Source: Sedimentisphaerales bacterium
GTDB taxonomy: Bacteria > Planctomycetota > Phycisphaerae > Sedimentisphaerales > SM23-30
Direction: 5' to 3'
Assembly (NCBI GenBank): GCA_963663965.2
Contig: CAXXFK010000032.1
Location: forward strand, 108,192-172,191
Length of the DNA stretch: 64,000 nt
Of the stretch, positions 44,861-56,375 are shown in pieces. The notes under the pieces were generated by a model that was not told the DNA's origin, made no database searches, and saw only the letters and a program-made list of their open reading frames with translations. Every line of letters begins with the position of its first letter. The stretch's first letter is position 1. The translations under genes were made by a program, and so were the position numbers.

Positions 44861-44935
44861 GGCCCCTTCGTCTAGCCAGGTCTAGGACACAGGGTTTTCA
44901 TCCCTGCAACACGGGTTCGAATCCCGTAGGGGTCA
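44861..44935 (+). tRNA. tRNA-Glu (TTC)
   Basis: Acceptor GGCCCCT/AGGGGTC; anticodon arm CAGGG-TTTTCAT-CCCTG; T-loop GTTCGAATC; CCA not encoded. Confidence 0.96.
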
Positions 44936-47482: not shown

Positions 47483-48808
47483 TTAATTCAAGTTCAGTAA
47501 ACCATAGCCATGTTCACCATGCAAACTATGGTCCATACCGGCCTTTTCATCATATTCGTTTAATCGGAATCCAACCGTTTTTTGAACAATAACACAGATC
47601 ACCAGAGTTCCGATGGCCGCCAGAACGATAGTGACTGAGATCCCTTTTAACTGCACCAGAAACTGATCCAGTGCCGACCAGGCTCCTGTTGAACTGAGTT
47701 CCGCCGCCTCGTTCATCCAGCTTTTTCGCACAAAAAACGATAATAATAAGACTCCCATTCCACTGCCCACCCCATGAATTCCAAAACAGTCCAGACTGTC
47801 ATCATACCCAAACCGCTCCTTTAATTTCAATGCGTAATAACACAATAATGCGGAACACGCCCCCATAATCAGGGCGCCGGTGGGCTGCACAACGCCGGCG
47901 GCGGGTGTGATGACCACCAGCCCTGCCAGTATTCCGGACACAAATCCCAATGAAGTCGCCTTTCGAAACTTGATCGCTTCAATCAGCATCCAGGTTAACG
48001 CGCCGCTCGCGGCGGACACCTGGGTCATGGTCAGGGCCCTGGCAGTATCTAATCCGCTATGAATGGTTGATCCTGCATTGAAACCAAACCAGCCGGCCCA
48101 GAGCAATCCGGCTCCCATCATGGTCATGACCAGATTATTGGGATGCATGGCTGTTTTTGGATATCCGCGTCGCGCTCCCAGGAACAACGCGACGACCAGG
48201 GCGCTGACCCCCGCCGAAACATGGATCACCAGGCCGCCCGCCAGATCGATCACGCCATTGGCCCCGCTGTTATACAACCAGCCGTCAGATCCCCAGACCC
48301 AATGACACAACGGACAATAGACCAGAATAAACCAGAGGCAGATAAATAAACTGTAGCCGCGGAAATAAACCCGCTCTGCCAAGGCGCCCGCGATCAAGGC
48401 CGGGGTAATAATCGCGAATTTACCCTGAAACATAGCCAGAACATATTCCGGAACCCCGTTAACTATGGAATCGTCAATCCCCCTGAGACAGAAATAATTC
48501 CAGTCCCAGCCGATAAATCCACCCAGAATATTCTTTCCAAATGCCATCGAATACCCGCAGATCATCCACAAAACGCCAATCAATGCCATCGCGACAAAGC
48601 TATGCATCATCGTTCCCAAAACATTTTTCGTCCTCACCAGACCGCCATAAAACATGGCAAGTCCCGGCACCATCAGCAATACAAAAGCCGTGGATGTCAA
48701 CATCCAGGCTGTCGTTCCCGTATCGACATCAGACCCATCGTTCGCGTAGACACCGCTGGTCAATATCAATAATAACACCAGGGCCTGGAATAAATGCAAT
48801 TTCTTCAT
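47483..48808 (-). CDS. amtB: ammonium transporter (copy 1)
   Basis: PGLAMFYGG, FQGKFAIIT, twin His (VIHVSAG, GIHGVG), WFGFNAGS; ATG 48808. Confidence 0.95.
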   Translation of the reverse strand: MKKLHLFQALVLLLILTSGVYANDGSDVDTGTTAWMLTSTAFVLLMVPGLAMFYGGLVRTKNVLGTMMHSFVAMALIGVLWMICGYSMAFGKNILGGFIGWDWNYFCLRGIDDSIVNGVPEYVLAMFQGKFAIITPALIAGALAERVYFRGYSLFICLWFILVYCPLCHWVWGSDGWLYNSGANGVIDLAGGLVIHVSAGVSALVVALFLGARRGYPKTAMHPNNLVMTMMGAGLLWAGWFGFNAGSTIHSGLDTARALTMTQVSAASGALTWMLIEAIKFRKATSLGFVSGILAGLVVITPAAGVVQPTGALIMGACSALLCYYALKLKERFGYDDSLDCFGIHGVGSGMGVLLLSFFVRKSWMNEAAELSSTGAWSALDQFLVQLKGISVTIVLAAIGTLVICVIVQKTVGFRLNEYDEKAGMDHSLHGEHGYGLLNLN

Positions 48809-48990
48809 GCAATCAATCCCTTTAATTCCATAAGTCCAGACCGGTTGCGCAAACCGTACGATATGCAGTACGCGTATCGACACTGATACTGTCATCGCAC
48901 GGCGATTGACTCGCCGGCTGTATTCCGTTTATAGGTTCTAGGCCGGCTTACATACCGGCTGCCTGTTGGTTCAATAATGGCCGATCAGGA

Positions 48991-49006
48991 AGCAATAAAT
49001 ATGCCA
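48991..49006 (-). promoter_or_regulatory. sigma54 promoter of amt copy 1
   Basis: TGGCATATTTATTGCT. Confidence 0.8.
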
Positions 49007-49889: not shown

Positions 49890-51173
49890 TTAATTCAAAT
49901 TCAATAATCCATAGCCATGCTCACCATGCAAACTATGATCCATACCGGCTTTTTCCTGGGATTCCGCCATTCGGAAACCCACCGTCTTTTCTAATAGGAT
50001 ACAAAGTATCAGGGAGACTACTCCGGCGTACGCGATACTGATTAAAACCCCTTCCGTCTGATACCATAATTGCTGGGCAAATCCGTGTACCTCAACGGAT
50101 TCGGGTCTGAGGAAAAATGTCAGCCCGATTGCCCCGATAATTCCGGCAATCCCATGAATACCAAACACATCCAGAGTATCGTCGTATCCGAGTCGTGATT
50201 TGATCAGAACGGCGCCATAACAGAAAAACGCGGCAATGGTCCCCAACGCGATCGCGCCGATGGGCGGCACATCGCCGGCCGCCGGTGTAATGGCAACCAG
50301 GCCCGCAAGGATACCGGAAACCAATCCAAGACTCGTGGCTTTTTTATGATGAAAGGCCTCAATCAACATCCATACCAGTGCCCCGGTAGCGGCGGCGATC
50401 TGGGTCACGGTCAGGGCCTGGGCGGTTTTCAATCCGCTGGATACCGAACTGCCGGCGTTAAATCCGAACCAGCCCACCCAGAGCAGACCGGCGCCCATAA
50501 GTGTCATGACCAGATTATTGGGATGCATGGCCGTTTTCGGATACCCCCTGCGAGCGCCCAGATACAAGGCGATAACCAGACCCGCGACACCCGCTGAAAT
50601 ATGAATAACGGTTCCTCCGGCAAAATCAATGGCTTTACCCGTTAAAAAACCGCCGCCCCACACCCAGTGCGCCAGCGGATTATAAACCAGTAAACTCCAT
50701 AATGCGATAAAGATACAATAGGCTTTGAACCGGACACGTTCCGCAAACGCCCCGGCGATCAAAGCCGGAGTAATAATCGCAAACTTACCCTGGAACATGG
50801 CGAATACCAGGGATGGGATTCCCAGGTTTTCATCAATTTTTGAATCCAGCCCTTTCAGGAATAGCCAGTCACTGTTCCAGCCGCACCAGCCATGGCTATC
50901 ACCAAAACACATGGCATAACCACAGACGGCCCATACCACACCAATGATGGCCATCGCCGCGAAACTGTGCATCATCGTCCCGATAACGTTCTTGGTGCGA
51001 ACCAGTCCACCGTAAAACATACCCAATCCCGGCACCATCAATAAGACCAGTGCCGTCGAGGTTAGCATCCAGGCGGTCGTACCGCTGTCACAGGCCACCT
51101 CATCGGCGGCAAATAAAGTTGACGTACATAACAAAAATAATAAACCAGACAAAACCAGCTGTTTTTTCTGCAT
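49890..51173 (-). CDS. amtB: ammonium transporter (copy 2)
   Basis: DFAGG, twin His, same C-terminus as copy 1 (HSLHGEHGYGLLNLN); ATG 51173. Confidence 0.95.
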   Translation of the reverse strand: MQKKQLVLSGLLFLLCTSTLFAADEVACDSGTTAWMLTSTALVLLMVPGLGMFYGGLVRTKNVIGTMMHSFAAMAIIGVVWAVCGYAMCFGDSHGWCGWNSDWLFLKGLDSKIDENLGIPSLVFAMFQGKFAIITPALIAGAFAERVRFKAYCIFIALWSLLVYNPLAHWVWGGGFLTGKAIDFAGGTVIHISAGVAGLVIALYLGARRGYPKTAMHPNNLVMTLMGAGLLWVGWFGFNAGSSVSSGLKTAQALTVTQIAAATGALVWMLIEAFHHKKATSLGLVSGILAGLVAITPAAGDVPPIGAIALGTIAAFFCYGAVLIKSRLGYDDTLDVFGIHGIAGIIGAIGLTFFLRPESVEVHGFAQQLWYQTEGVLISIAYAGVVSLILCILLEKTVGFRMAESQEKAGMDHSLHGEHGYGLLNLN

Positions 51174-51261
51174 ACCTGTGGTTCCTTTTAATTTTAAAGA
51201 GTATTCCGTTTGATAACTGATGCCTTCAACATCAAGAGATATTCTGTGCAGAAATACTTTT

Positions 51262-51277
51262 TGCAAATGATATGCCA
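51262..51277 (-). promoter_or_regulatory. sigma54 promoter of amt2-glnK2
   Basis: TGGCATATCATTTGCA. Confidence 0.85.
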
Positions 51278-51484: not shown

Positions 51485-51503
51485 AAGTCATTCTCATAAA
51501 ATC

Positions 51504-51534
51504 AAAAAAAACCAGGTCCATAATGGATACCTGG
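51504..51534 (-). terminator. intrinsic terminator after the porin-amt3-glnK3 unit
   Basis: Minus strand CCAGGTATCCA-TTA-TGGACCTGG followed by T8. Confidence 0.65.
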
Positions 51535-51619
51535 CGTTTTGAATTGGCGGTTTTACCAATTCGTTTTATCTATACTCTCTCTCAATTTCAAAAAAAATAA
51601 TGGTGCCAAATTTATTTGA

Positions 51620-51740
51620 TTAAGCGTGCCCTGTCAGGTTGGACAGGACACGCAAACGGAATTAAAGGGAACCGTCAGGCCAGAATTAGAGGCACATGTG
51701 GTTTTTGCGGAGTTCCTGAGGTTCCCCTCCACAGGTCAAC
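51620..51740 (-). ncRNA. candidate 3'-UTR-derived small RNA downstream of glnK3
   Basis: Hairpin, single-stranded GGUUCCCUUUAAUUCCG, then hairpin; G.U pairs are valid only on the minus strand; the seed is complementary to amt leaders. Confidence 0.45.
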
Positions 51741-51744
51741 ATCA

Positions 51745-52086
51745 TCAGCCGATCGCGTCATTGCCTTCTTCGCCGGTTCGGATACGAATACACCGTTCCA
51801 GGGGCATGACAAAAATCTTGCCATCGCCGATCTCTCCGGTTTTGGCGCCGGCGATAATCGCATCGATCGTAGGCTGAACATAGTCTTCATTTACCGCGAT
51901 TTCCAGGCGGACTTTCTTCAGCAGATTCACTTCCATCGCGACGCCGCGGTAAGATTCATGATAGCCCATCTGTTGGCCGCAGCCCAGCGCGTTGGTTACG
52001 GACATTTTGAAAATCCGGGCTTTATATAACGATTGTTTGACATCGTTGAGTTTATCCGGTTGTATGTATGCAACTATAAGTCTCAT
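51745..52086 (-). CDS. glnK: PII protein (copy 3)
   Basis: [29 protein letters not shown]. Confidence 0.95.
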
Positions 52087-52173
52087 GGTATTATTATCTC
52101 CTGATTAGCCGGCGTTTTTTTATGCGCGCCGGATAGGGTTATTATTTATTTAACGGTTTTGAAATTCCTGTTA

Positions 52174-53547
52174 TTACTGATTGCTGAAGATCTGGAAGCC
52201 ATAGTAAGCCTCGTTGCCGTGTTCGCTGATATCCAGGCCACGCATTTCATCTTCTTTAGAGGCTCTCAGTCCAATCGTAAATTTGATCAGATTGAACAGG
52301 ATCATGCCGCAGCCAAACGCCCAGACAAACATGGCGCCCGCACCGGTCAGCTGTGTGATAAACTGACCCATGACACTGTAATCCTCTGATGGCCCATTCT
52401 GGAAAAAGCTCAAGGCCAACGTGCCCCAGACACCGCAGACACCATGCACACTCACGGCGCCCACCGGATCATCAATCTTGAGGACTTTGTCGACAAATTC
52501 AACCGCCAGTACCACCAGAAGACCGGCAACGCCGCCAATGACGATGGCGCCGATCGGTGTCACACAATTGCATCCGGCGGTTATCGCCACCAGACCGGCC
52601 AGTACACCGTTCAAACTCATACCGGTATCCGGTTTCCCGAATCGTATCCAGCTGACGATCATCGCCACAATGGCGCCGGCAGCCGCCGCCAGGTTGGTGG
52701 TCATGGCGATATAACCAATGGAGCTGTCGCCCGTAGTCGTACTGCCTGGGTTAAAACCAAACCAGCCAAACCACAGGATAAATACGCCCAGTGCGGCTAA
52801 TGGGATATTATGCCCCGGTATCGCGCGTGATTTGCCATCCGGCCCGTATTTACCAATACGCGGTCCCAGGGTAATCGCCCCGGCCAGCGCCAGCCACGCC
52901 CCGCAACTGTGTACGACAGTCGAGCCGGCAAAATCCAGAAATTTCATTTTCTCCAGCCATCCTTCTCCAATACCAAACAGACTTCCCCACGCCCAGTGTC
53001 CGCTGATCGGATAGATCAATCCGCAGATCACCGCGCTATAGGCCAGGTATCCGGTAAATTTGGTCCGGCCCGCCATCGCGCCCGAGACGATCGTCGCGGC
53101 CGTTCCGGCAAACACGCACTGGAATATCCAGAAAGTCCAGTTCAATTCACTGGCGCTGTAATCGCTGGCGGCAAAATGAGTCGTGCCAAACAGCACACCG
53201 CCGGCGCCGAACATCAGACCAAAACCGATCAGCCACCAGGCGATCGTACCCATGGAAAAGTCCATCAGGTTCTTCATCATGATATTACAGGCATTTTTGG
53301 CGCGGGTAAAACCAGTCTCCACCATCGCAAATCCCGCTTGCATAAAGAACACCAGAAACGCCGCCACGGCAGTCCAGACGATATTCAAATTCACCTGCAA
53401 GTCGGCCACGGTTGGCCCGGGATCTTCCACGGCTTCAACCACGGTTTCCACGGCTTCTACCGGCGTGTCCTGAGCGGCGGCGTATGCGGCAAACAGGCCT
53501 AGCACACCTATTATTACTATTATATATCTAAAATATCTTTTACACAT
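52174..53547 (-). CDS. amt: ammonium transporter (copy 3, different subfamily)
   Basis: VFFMQAGFAMVETG, DFAGSTVVH, VHGVCG; ATG 53547 behind AAAGGGA. Confidence 0.95.
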   Translation of the reverse strand: MCKRYFRYIIVIIGVLGLFAAYAAAQDTPVEAVETVVEAVEDPGPTVADLQVNLNIVWTAVAAFLVFFMQAGFAMVETGFTRAKNACNIMMKNLMDFSMGTIAWWLIGFGLMFGAGGVLFGTTHFAASDYSASELNWTFWIFQCVFAGTAATIVSGAMAGRTKFTGYLAYSAVICGLIYPISGHWAWGSLFGIGEGWLEKMKFLDFAGSTVVHSCGAWLALAGAITLGPRIGKYGPDGKSRAIPGHNIPLAALGVFILWFGWFGFNPGSTTTGDSSIGYIAMTTNLAAAAGAIVAMIVSWIRFGKPDTGMSLNGVLAGLVAITAGCNCVTPIGAIVIGGVAGLLVVLAVEFVDKVLKIDDPVGAVSVHGVCGVWGTLALSFFQNGPSEDYSVMGQFITQLTGAGAMFVWAFGCGMILFNLIKFTIGLRASKEDEMRGLDISEHGNEAYYGFQIFSNQ

Positions 53548-53621
53548 AATCAAATCCCTTTCATCGTTTTTTCATCACAATTAAAAAATATTGTCTGTTA
53601 TCCCTTTAATTCCGGGGGGAG

Positions 53622-53652
53622 GAGCGCGGAGCATGGAGGCTGCTCCGCGCTC
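53622..53652. other. strong intercistronic hairpin without a U-tract
   Basis: GAGCGCGGAGCA-N7-TGCTCCGCGCTC between the porin and amt3. Confidence 0.6.
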
Positions 53653-53702: not shown

Positions 53703-54527
53703 TTAGAAACTGAAGCTGACGCTTAAGCCGCCAAACAGCTCCTTGTCGTCGCCATAGGTACACACGGATTCTTCCATGATGATCACATAATTCAGGAACG
53801 GCTTGACACTGATGGCATCGGTCACGGGAATTTCAGAAGATACCCCCAGGGTGGCGTAAGACCAGTCGCTTTCCGCGCCAAACTGTCCGTCGTCATAGTT
53901 GATATCGCCATACAGGCTCAACGCGATATCTTCAGTCACCGGAACATCGGCGCTCAGGGACAACGAGTGGAACCAGCCTGGCGTGGTGCCGTCATTGCCC
54001 CAATCGATTCCAGAGTGGGTGCCCCACAGCCAGCCAACATAATATCCCGGCACAATCGCTACCTCGCCCACCTTGAACAGGTTGGGCAGAGAGATACTGG
54101 CGCCAATTTCCTGGCTATCGCCATCGGTATTATCCGGGAAATAGAAATAAATATAGTTGGTGCTGACATCAAGGGCATACGCTTCTTCCGGCATCAGGGT
54201 AGTGCCATAGGAAAAGGTAAAATCCAATTCATCCCAGGCGTTGATATGACCGCCGCCCTCACCTAACGGGAATGAACCCCACACATTAAACCCAAATCCT
54301 TCCAGACCAACCTTGGAAAGGTCGAAATCAACACTCGGTTGAAATGCCGGTTGGTCATCAAACAGATCACGGCCACGCCAGATATACTGGGTGGCATATG
54401 CGGCGTCGAAAGTAATACCCATCGATTCATCCGCCTCTTGCGCCTTAATCGAGTTACAATCCGTAAACAGGATCGTCAGCGCTAGCACAGCAGTTAAACC
54501 AGCCATTTTGCTCATTCTTTTAATCAT
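53703..54527 (-). CDS. TorF-like putative outer-membrane porin
   Basis: Signal peptide; TQYIWRG...PAFQPS, ELDF motifs; C-terminal FSF; first gene of an amt-glnK unit. Confidence 0.75.
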   Translation of the reverse strand: MIKRMSKMAGLTAVLALTILFTDCNSIKAQEADESMGITFDAAYATQYIWRGRDLFDDQPAFQPSVDFDLSKVGLEGFGFNVWGSFPLGEGGGHINAWDELDFTFSYGTTLMPEEAYALDVSTNYIYFYFPDNTDGDSQEIGASISLPNLFKVGEVAIVPGYYVGWLWGTHSGIDWGNDGTTPGWFHSLSLSADVPVTEDIALSLYGDINYDDGQFGAESDWSYATLGVSSEIPVTDAISVKPFLNYVIIMEESVCTYGDDKELFGGLSVSFSF

Positions 54528-54639: not shown

Positions 54640-54655
54640 AGCTAATTGCGTGCCA
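54640..54655 (-). promoter_or_regulatory. sigma54 promoter of porin-amt3-glnK3
   Basis: TGGCACGCAATTAGCT. Confidence 0.8.
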
Positions 54656-54732: not shown

Positions 54733-54777
54733 ACATAAATGTAATTATTGACAACTTTGTACACACTTTTGTATAAT
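54733..54777 (+). promoter_or_regulatory. sigma70 promoter of the activator gene, overlapped by ACA-N4-TGT sites
   Basis: TTGACA(54748)-N18-TATAAT(54772); ACATAAATGT 54733, ACAACTTTGT 54751, ACACTTTTGT 54763. Confidence 0.75.
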
Positions 54778-54845
54778 TTCCCAAGTGTTATCACAATTTT
54801 TACCTATTACTAATTGATCTGAACTTTATTGTTTAAGGGAACCCG

Positions 54846-56375
54846 ATGAGTTCGATTCATGTAAAACAGCTTGAAACACTTTACAAAATTAGCAATATTA
54901 TCGCTTCCGGTACCCAGCAAAAGCTCATTTTCGCTGAAGTTCTCGATACGTTAGAGAATGATTTGGGTATGAAACGCGGCACGATTACCCTGCTATCGTC
55001 CCAAAGTGACGAAATTGTCATAGAAGTTGCCCATAATCTATCTGATCAGAATAAACATATCCGATTTCGGACGGGCGAAGGCATCACCGGCCAGGTGGTT
55101 CAGTCCGGCAAAGCCCGCATCGTACCCAAAGTATCCGAAGAACCCCAGTTCCTCAATCGCATCAATCGCATAAAAAATTCCAGCGAAGAAATGAGCTTTA
55201 TCTGCGTACCCATTTCCAGCGGGAATGATGTCATAGGGACAATCGCTATCGATCGACCCTGGGATCCTGGCATTAATCTCGAAGAAGATATGCGTTTATT
55301 GAGTATTGTCGCCAGTATGATCGCGTATGATGTCCGGATCCGCCGGGAGCAGGAACAAAAATTCCAGGAATTTGAAGACGAAAACTTACGACTCAGAAAT
55401 GAGCTGGAAGACCGGTTCCGTCCGGAAAATATCATCGGAAATTCCAATGCCATGCGCGAAGTCTATCGGGCGATCCATCAGGTCGCCCCAAGCGATACCA
55501 CGGTTTTGATTCGCGGGGAATCGGGCACGGGCAAAGAACTGGTCGCTCACGCCATCCATTATACCAGTCCCCGGGCCAAAAGACCTTTTGTCCGGGTCAA
55601 TTGCGCGGCCATGAGCGAAAGCCTCCTTGAAAGCGAATTGTTTGGCCACGAAAAAGGCGCTTTCACCGGCGCGATACAATCCCGTATCGGCCATATCGAA
55701 GAAGCGGAAGACGGCACATTATTTCTGGATGAAATCGGCGATTTTTCACCGGCCATCCAGGTAAAGCTCCTGCGCGTACTGCAGGAAAGGGAATACAAAC
55801 GGGTCGGCAGCAATCAAACACTGAAATCAAACGCCCGGATAATCTGCGCCACCAACCGGGACCTCGAAAAGGCGGTCGCCAACGGGCAGTTCCGGCAGGA
55901 TCTCTATTATCGAATCAATGTGTTCCCGATTTTTCTGCCTCCGCTCCGGGATCGTAAAGATGATATCCTGCAACTGGCGGACTATTTTGTCGAGCGCTAC
56001 GCCAAAAAACTGAACAAAGATGTCCGACGAATCAGTACGCCGGCCATTAATATGATGGTATCCTATCATTGGCCCGGTAACGTTCGCGAACTGGAAAACT
56101 GTATCGAACGGGCAGTGCTTCTGAGTTCTGATGGCGTTATCCAGGGACACCACCTGCCCCCCACCCTGCAAACCTCCGATGCCTCGGATACTATCGGCAC
56201 CGGTTCTTTCCGTGAGCGGGTGGGATTATTCGAACGCGATCTGGTCATCGATGCTCTCAAACGTAATGATGGTAATATTTCAGCGGCAGCCCGGGATTTG
56301 CAATCAACCGCACGGATTGTCCGCTATAAAATAAGCGAATTAGATATTGACTATAAACGTTATTGCCGTAAATAG
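54846..56375 (+). CDS. NifA-like sigma54-dependent activator (GAF-AAA+-HTH)
   Basis: GAF domain ([15 protein letters not shown]); [40 protein letters not shown]; Fis-type HTH. Confidence 0.93.

Follow-up and report, generated by a model that had tools for sequence, protein, structure and literature searches.

The described RNA closest in design to the element reported here is s-SodF of Streptomyces coelicolor, which is ~90 nt long, has been shown experimentally to be processed from a 3' untranslated region (3'UTR), and is perfectly complementary to the 5' end and ribosome-binding site (RBS) of the gene for an alternative enzyme doing the same job, in a host without Hfq (PMC3919588). OppZ and CarZ of Vibrio cholerae are likewise 3'UTR-derived and pair with an intercistronic region of their own operon (PMC7398697). 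GlnZ of the Enterobacteriaceae, a 3'UTR RNA of the nitrogen-starvation operon of glnA, keeps its seed and terminator conserved amid variable sequence, targets sucA as well as the nitrogen-transport gene glnP, and represses the latter (bioRxiv 10.1101/2022.04.01.486790). HM1_A of the archaeon Haloferax mediterranei shares with the element here a proposed role in the regulation of an amt gene by a small RNA; it differs in being a cis-antisense RNA over the archaeal amt1 gene (141 nt) and in not deriving from a 3'UTR (PMC5852579). The comparison literature also includes the review PMC13501541 and PMC11266412. In the open-access literature (main texts), we found neither a description of a glnK-3'UTR RNA aimed at amt genes nor a described case of a base-pairing sRNA system in Planctomycetota.

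The locus analysed here, the 3'UTR of glnK3 in a genome of the Sedimentisphaerales (G000), resembles s-SodF in design and not in sequence: in a genome where Hfq was not found, a 3'UTR complements the 5' end or RBS of an isofunctional gene. In both, the seed lies partly in a stem-loop followed by a terminator hairpin, and the s-SodF seed starts ~20 nt after the stop codon, as it does in the elements of families f4 and f7 described below. The s-SodF system concerns Fe and Ni isoenzymes under Nur, whereas the genes here encode Amt paralogs that share a sigma54 regime. The present case also differs in that one seed has several predicted targets, that an anti-seed lies upstream, and that the seeds found at this locus across one order are dissimilar in sequence; moreover, s-SodF was shown by experiment whereas the glnK3 3'UTR RNA is predicted from sequence. 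A site between the porin-like gene and amt3 parallels the oppA-oppB site of OppZ/CarZ; OppZ, however, depends on Hfq, and here pairing within the own operon is confined to few genomes, the main predicted targets being other operons. We do not count the element as one of the Hfq-dependent OppZ type. GlnZ derives from glnA, whereas the present element comes from glnK, is aimed at amt leaders, and has a seed that turns over together with its targets; we rejected membership in GlnZ because the source is glnK3 and not glnA, which lies 5 kb away.

Our main reading, to which we assign a probability of about 0.7, is that the 3' end of the porin-amt3-glnK3 mRNA contains a seed directed at the amt1 and amt2 leaders and, once processed, works in trans as a small RNA blocking the translation of both genes. 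Many bacteria carry several amt-glnK operons and, to our knowledge, the ranking among amt paralogs is poorly known; the element offers a concrete, one-way, and testable RNA mechanism for such a ranking. It would constitute a base-pairing sRNA system in Planctomycetota, apparently needing neither Hfq nor ProQ, and the dissimilar seeds at one locus, each with its own targets, form a natural series for the origin and co-evolution of 3'UTR seeds.

The Nitrogen Gene Cluster and Its Predicted Promoters

The window, a stretch of 64,000 nt (G000, contig C32, positions 108192-172191), carries on its minus strand, in this order, a porin-like Gcw_chp gene, amt3, glnK3, amt2-glnK2, amt1, glnK1, and glnA; a tRNA gene (44861-44935, plus strand) lies just past glnA, at the edge of the nitrogen cluster. 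The first gene of the source operon (53703-54527, minus strand) encodes a Gcw_chp-family protein, which scores 24.8 bits with PF09694 against a cut-off of 24; the label porin comes from the initial annotation. It is followed on the same strand by amt3 (52174-53547), a "type A" ammonium transporter above the cut-off of TIGR00836, and by glnK3 (51745-52086), a PII gene whose 3'UTR holds the element. With TIGR03644, amt3 reaches 394 bits versus 155 and 177 for amt1 and amt2, all of them below the cut-off. The predicted target genes amt2 (49890-51173) and amt1 (47483-48808) are also on the minus strand.

A gene for a NifA-like GAF-AAA-HTH sigma54 activator (54846-56375, plus strand) diverges from the porin-amt3-glnK3 operon at 54846, and the activator likely drives that operon. 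Upstream of the activator gene lies a perfect sigma70 consensus promoter (12/12; 54748-54777, plus strand). The predicted promoter of the porin-amt3-glnK3-RNA unit is a sigma54-like -24/-12 site (54641-54655, minus strand) with one mismatch to the consensus, and scanning the window with this consensus also placed minus-strand sites before amt2-glnK2 (51263-51277) and amt1 (48992-49006), and a further one upstream of glnK1. As the scan gave six matches in the window with 4.4 expected, support for these sites comes from their position. A separate promoter for the RNA was looked for, and no sigma54-like site was present in 51745-52400.

Structure of the glnK3 3'UTR

The element is located between the glnK3 stop codon and the operon terminator, on the mRNA strand. 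The seed is found at 51673-51657 (minus strand), where the initial annotation placed it, and directly 3' of it folding gives the 12-bp terminator-type hairpin (51653-51624, minus strand) proposed there, with one U.G pair that leaves the helix continuous on the minus strand and broken on the plus strand. The minus-strand fold beats shuffles with z -4.1 versus -2.1 for the plus strand (full-UTR MFE -46.4). The hairpin has no U-tract in G000, whereas its homologs in G009 and G231 do; four of its 12 pairs change on both sides among the three homologs, a number that is not beyond shuffles (47/500). A second hairpin with an 8-U tail (51534-51504, minus strand), recognized from sequence and fold and absent from the listing of a simple terminator scan, is likely the true operon terminator and would give a longer form of ~240 nt.

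The proposed open structure needs revision because of an internal anti-seed (51729-51715, minus strand), which in the predicted fold of the uncut UTR pairs with 51679-51664 and thereby hides the 5' half of the seed, so that the seed is not single-stranded as had been claimed: the unpaired probability is ~0 for its first 7 nt, and ~8-10 nt stay free ahead of the 12-bp hairpin. A first hairpin proposed at 51733-51706 is not in the MFE fold. Forcing the seed open in the full UTR costs ~9.5 kcal/mol, and opening the seed loop costs 6.7 kcal/mol in the uncut UTR versus 0.7-3.0 kcal/mol in the processed form lacking the anti-seed. In that predicted form the seed sits in a stem-loop (51676-51654, minus strand) with a 5-bp stem (51676-51672 with 51659-51655) and a 12-nt loop (51671-51660); homologous stem-loops are present in G009, G070, and G231. 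The seed of G009 is also masked by an upstream anti-seed, one that is non-homologous to that of G000, and the modeled masking in both genomes suggests activation by cleavage. G000 encodes RNase E/G and Rho, and searches of this genome (94.6% complete) for Hfq (PF17209) and ProQ (PF04352) found neither; the candidate sRNA is likely Hfq-independent.

In agreement with the initial annotation, we found no start codon within 20 nt after the plus-strand copy of the seed, on which ground we rejected a plus-strand small ORF using the motif as its RBS. The covariance models of Rfam 15 gave no match at 51500-51745 up to an E value of 5, and none at gathering score in eight related loci; no dispersed repeat family of the UTR was found in the G000 genome.

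Predicted Targets in the Genome

The 13-mer of the seed occurs three times in 7.24 Mb, always within this cluster (the seed itself, the amt1 RBS, and the porin-amt3 spacer), and the 14-mer twice. At amt1, the seed pairs 13/13 with 48817-48829 (minus strand), a site at -21 to -9 from the ATG at 48808 that covers the Shine-Dalgarno sequence (SD). The 14/14 match in the porin-amt3 leader (53601-53614, minus strand) stands as well, but is not on the RBS, being 54-67 nt upstream of the amt3 start. For amt2, the reported 13/14 match at 51180-51193 is accompanied by a second perfect 10-nt site (51203-51212) and by pairing up to the AUG, both missed earlier; the predicted two-part target (51212-51203 plus 51193-51175, minus strand) extends over the SD to the AUG at 51173 and makes amt2 the strongest nitrogen-gene duplex. 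A 12-bp hairpin (53623-53652, minus strand), directly 5' of the 14-nt porin-amt3 site, could mark a processing or stabilizing point.

We ranked these sites among 5078 crude gene starts from our own ORF caller (-70 to +20; glnK3 is not included). Perfect runs of at least 10 nt are found at only seven starts: amt3 (14 nt), amt1 (13 nt), two unrelated genes (12 nt), and amt2 together with two others (10 nt). By duplex energy, amt1, amt3, and amt2 rank 21, 39, and 48. When target windows are restricted to 30 nt over -60 to +20, amt1 ranks 10, whereas amt2 falls to 534 because its site is split and amt3 to 1109 because its site is outside the range. Of 85 seeds shuffled by dinucleotides, not one brought the three amt leaders together into the top 2% (best 13.4%; for the real seed 0.4% each). 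Cofold gains are -21.5 for amt2, -19.3 for an rplT-pheS site discussed below, -16.1 for porin-amt3, -14.4 for amt1, and -14.2 for a type III glutamine synthetase gene (GSIII), and fall to -10.0 for glnK2 and -6.4 for the activator.

From these ranks, shuffles, and cofold gains, the amt targets hold and two other proposed targets do not. The 9-nt match at the activator (54835-54843) exists, but this 9-mer occurs 47 times in the genome and the activator start ranks 599/5078; glnK2 ranks 1730/5078. Both were rejected on genome-wide rank and cofold gain, and the predicted target list narrows to the amt genes. The idea of a glnK 3'UTR RNA feeding back on the Amt/PII island therefore survives as antisense to amt leaders, which is strongly supported, and loses its activator and glnK2 arms.

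Homologs of the Seed in Related Genomes

A model built from G000, G009, and G231, the last of these recognized by eye, and searched over 151 genomes added G070; none of the six next-best hits, which we inspected, lies behind glnK. The G000 type is a separate sequence family with four known members. A family pattern allowing three mismatches and its reversed control yielded similar numbers of hits, G009 and the rplT-pheS site being the exceptions, and a metagenome pattern scan gave two hits, both inside coding sequences of unrelated loci.

In G009, which belongs to another genus of the same family, the same seed and hairpin carry substitutions that are mirrored in the amt leader, and this leader pairs with its own seed over ~27 bp including the SD. 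The duplex reaches -36.7 with the 33-nt G009 seed versus -20.5 with the 26-nt G000 seed, the lengths being different. G009 has a 13/13 site in its amt3-glnK3 spacer, a sequence found in that genome only there and at the seed. Reciprocally, the G000 and G009 seeds give -23.2 versus -19.6 on G000 amt1 and -22.4 versus -15.8 on the porin-amt3 site; amt2 does not discriminate (-20.8 versus -20.6). The covariation of seed and amt leaders foreseen for relatives is thus seen in G009, as it is in the f4/f7 family below. G231 is the exception: the homologous seed and hairpin are kept, but the genome has one amt gene, and no strong cognate site was found in four leaders. The G070 homolog pairs best, over 18 bp, with a sigma54 leader upstream of GSIII and not of an amt gene; G009 has no GSIII match. 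The G231 and G070 cases count against a strictly amt-only role. In G070, the first glnK 3'UTR (L341) also has a second related pyrimidine-rich seed before a U-tailed hairpin, partly complementary, by eye, to the early coding region of the second amt.

glnK 3'UTRs and amt Leaders across the Order

Across the order, we annotated ~100 fetched regions and 78 named loci and dropped 16 duplicates; of 66 glnK-to-amt junctions, seven were dropped for want of a sigma54-like site, leaving 59 to be scored. When a match is defined as at least 10 nt of perfect antisense between the first 120 nt after the glnK stop codon and the next leader, a threshold and window chosen after a first look at the junction data, 28/59 junctions match, compared with two in sense, three in the reversed control, and a mean of 1.4 (maximum 4; 100 rounds) with shuffled UTRs. 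Cross-family control pairs match at this length in 3.5% of 2604 cases. Extending the UTR to 200 nt gives 30/59 in antisense versus 4 (sense), 4 (reversed), and 3.0 (shuffles), and with one junction per genus the counts are 12 versus 1 and 1 of 27 genera. It should be noted that about half of the 59 junctions have no 10-nt match, and that junctions beating shuffles are unevenly spread over families (f4, 10/10; f7, 12/24; f1, 4/10; f8, 1/2; f6, 1/9; others, 0/4). Strong sites fall over -20 to +3 of an SD-backed start in 19/27 evaluable cases, with 6.4 expected by random placement, and a sigma54-like promoter faces the amt gene in all 59 scored junctions.

In the f4/f7 seed family (26/28 junctions kept, 10 genera), five of the nine core columns (3, 5, 6, 8, and 11) each show Watson-Crick pairs of two types. 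Pairing reaches 88% for own pairs versus 75% across genera, a comparison that leans favourable as target placement was optimized on the core. The profile R2, built from the 26 f4/f7 sequences, finds many f4/f7 UTRs and misses the window as well as L016, L247, and L341, so that at least two sequence families, plus f1 singletons, occupy the same slot. RNAalifold gave no consensus pairs on a MAFFT alignment of the 26 f4/f7 UTRs, and their shared structure therefore rests on single-sequence folds. G.U versus A.C counts in the flanks (43 versus 39.6 expected) gave no RNA-specific bias.

Several individual loci are of note. In L033 and L181 (both f4), the glnK 3'UTR contains two seeds, one for the 5' end of the next amt leader and one for the SD of another amt. 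In genus g5 (L018, L020, L026, and L028), a conserved pre-terminator motif resembles the complement of amt leaders 0.17-1.4 Mb away; these unlinked matches of 9-12 nt, whose controls were not clean, are no better than some cross-genome pairs and are at most suggestive. In L017 (G012), the 11-nt target in the leader of the amt gene after glnK3 overlaps a possible uORF of eight codons, 26-36 nt before the amt start. In L021 (G017), amt3 is in several frames and is followed by a partial amt-glnK duplication, possibly assembly errors.

Predicted Pairing in Trans and within the Source Operon

For 12 genomes whose amt-glnK operons lie on two contigs, we compared the UTR of the type-A operon, that is, the operon whose Amt resembles amt3 (65-70% identity), with amt starts on the other contig. 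It matches such a start in 8/12 over 10-16 nt, these eight unlinked cases stemming from two genera and three of them (G257, G267, and G277) lying within 4 kb of a contig end; in the reverse direction, from the UTR of the other operon to the type-A operon, the count is 0/10 evaluable. G204 is at least 77 kb from any contig end on both contigs, and G256 has ~40 kb free downstream. One seed matches two different amt genes in G267, G246, and G277, and genera g34 and g67 differ by one compensatory pair.

Pairing with the amt leader of the own operon behaves differently: across the order, antisense and sense matches are equal (11 versus 11 of 76), and outside the order there are 1 versus 2 among 44 loci. 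We therefore rejected own-operon pairing as a general rule. Predicted feedback of the RNA on its own operon, part of the original proposal, is clear only in G000 and G009, and with pairing elsewhere at background it is best seen as a local feature. Targeting of amt leaders is strongly supported: the match is rare in the genome, the amt starts rank high among all gene starts, seeds and leaders covary in relatives, and some targets lie on other contigs. We take the complementarity between glnK 3'UTRs and amt leaders, judging from these sequence comparisons, to be a real and selected feature. Its general logic appears to be cross-regulation of sister amt paralogs by a predicted RNA.

Alternative Explanations

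The pairing might be real with no sRNA released, the intact mRNA 3' end pairing in cis with its own upstream spacer or, in read-through, with the next amt leader. Perfect matches within the source operon of G000 and of G009, the adjacency on one strand of most scored junctions, and the missing U-tract of the G000 hairpin fit this explanation, which we nonetheless consider unlikely: amt1 is 2.8 kb and two promoters away, one seed can have two targets, and given the targets on other contigs (G204 and G256 being far from contig ends) and the background level of own-operon pairing, neither cis read-through nor DNA inversion is a general explanation. Inversion belongs to a wider group of DNA-level readings, in which the matches would be inverted repeats: a dispersed repeat, sites for proteins that bind in either orientation, or the two ends of a promoter segment that can invert. 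In the adjacent cases a sigma54 promoter does lie between the copies, and the null flank G.U result would agree with this. However, sense-strand matches do not exceed background, some partners are found on other contigs, the sites of G000 amt2 and G009 amt are interrupted by bulges or splits, no repeat family of the UTR was found in the genome, and every scored promoter points toward the amt gene. We regard the DNA-level readings as very improbable. Contigs from two DNA runs of a single sample contained no inversion joints, an uninformative result at their depth of 2-4. Chance pairing of a pyrimidine-rich, anti-SD-like stretch with purine-rich leaders has in its favor the likeness of the seed core to an anti-SD sequence, and the 9-nt match at the activator is of that kind; it is largely refuted by the seven starts reaching a 10-nt run, of which three are amt genes, by the low shuffle, sense, reversed, and cross-family controls, and by the compensatory changes.

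Another rival accepts pairing in trans and alters its outcome: amt mRNAs would be activated or stabilized, or amt leaders would control the source mRNA, acting as sponges or as triggers for the opening of the masked UTR. The G000 UTR does resemble a toehold switch, with half of its seed masked and ~8-10 nt free, some sites are off the RBS (53601, and the second seeds of L033 and L181), and sRNA154 of Methanosarcina stabilizes nitrogen mRNAs (PMC9765008). On the other side, 19/27 strong sites cover the SD or start codon, and the predicted folds of the amt1 and amt2 leaders do not surpass those of shuffles (z -0.8 and -0.2), which leaves no strong inhibitory structure to open. Pairing over an SD or start codon generally blocks ribosomes, and we find this alternative, too, improbable compared with a processed RNA that represses amt1 and amt2 in trans.

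Proposed Mechanism and Further Candidate Targets

Under this preferred reading of repression in trans, we infer a discrete RNA, its induction through sigma54, its processing, chaperone-free pairing, repression, and a purpose. When nitrogen is limiting, transcription of the porin-amt3-glnK3 operon would be driven by sigma54 and the NifA-like activator, and in the uncut UTR the anti-seed would mask half of the seed. An endonucleolytic cut between ~51714 and 51680, possibly by RNase E/G, would release an RNA of 65-95 nt or longer, with the seed in an exposed loop ahead of a stable hairpin. Loop-initiated pairing over 13 to ~30 bp, likely without Hfq or ProQ, would then occlude the ribosome sites of amt1 and amt2, so that, in a hierarchy running one way, the sister Amt operons would be damped by the operon of the type-A transporter; in G000, the site in the porin-amt3 spacer may let the RNA damp amt3-glnK3 as well. 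The purpose might be to favor the porin-coupled type-A transporter and to limit total Amt.

A much broader scenario, which we consider doubtful, would have the Sedimentisphaerales use a chaperone-free RNA hierarchy among ammonium transporters, with a glnK 3'UTR slot that repeatedly gains new seeds co-evolving with amt leaders and, in G000 and G009, a seed locked by an anti-seed until cleavage; the G000 RNA would also reach GSIII and invade the terminator between rplT and pheS, which would link nitrogen starvation with the translation apparatus. We treat GSIII and rplT-pheS as leads. The best ungapped seed complement in the genome (20/21 nt) is at this non-nitrogen locus (contig C21, 84892-84912, minus strand; L051), where it lies in the free stretch and the 5' arm of a terminator predicted in the rplT-pheS spacer. 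It has a blastn E value of 0.085 for a 246-nt query and is absent from that spacer in 5/5 relatives; it could reflect chance or an antitermination target peculiar to G000. The GSIII start (contig C29, ~161969, plus strand; L280) pairs with the seed in two blocks, over the SD and the first codons, and ranks 9, 5, and, after accessibility correction, 1 of the top 300.
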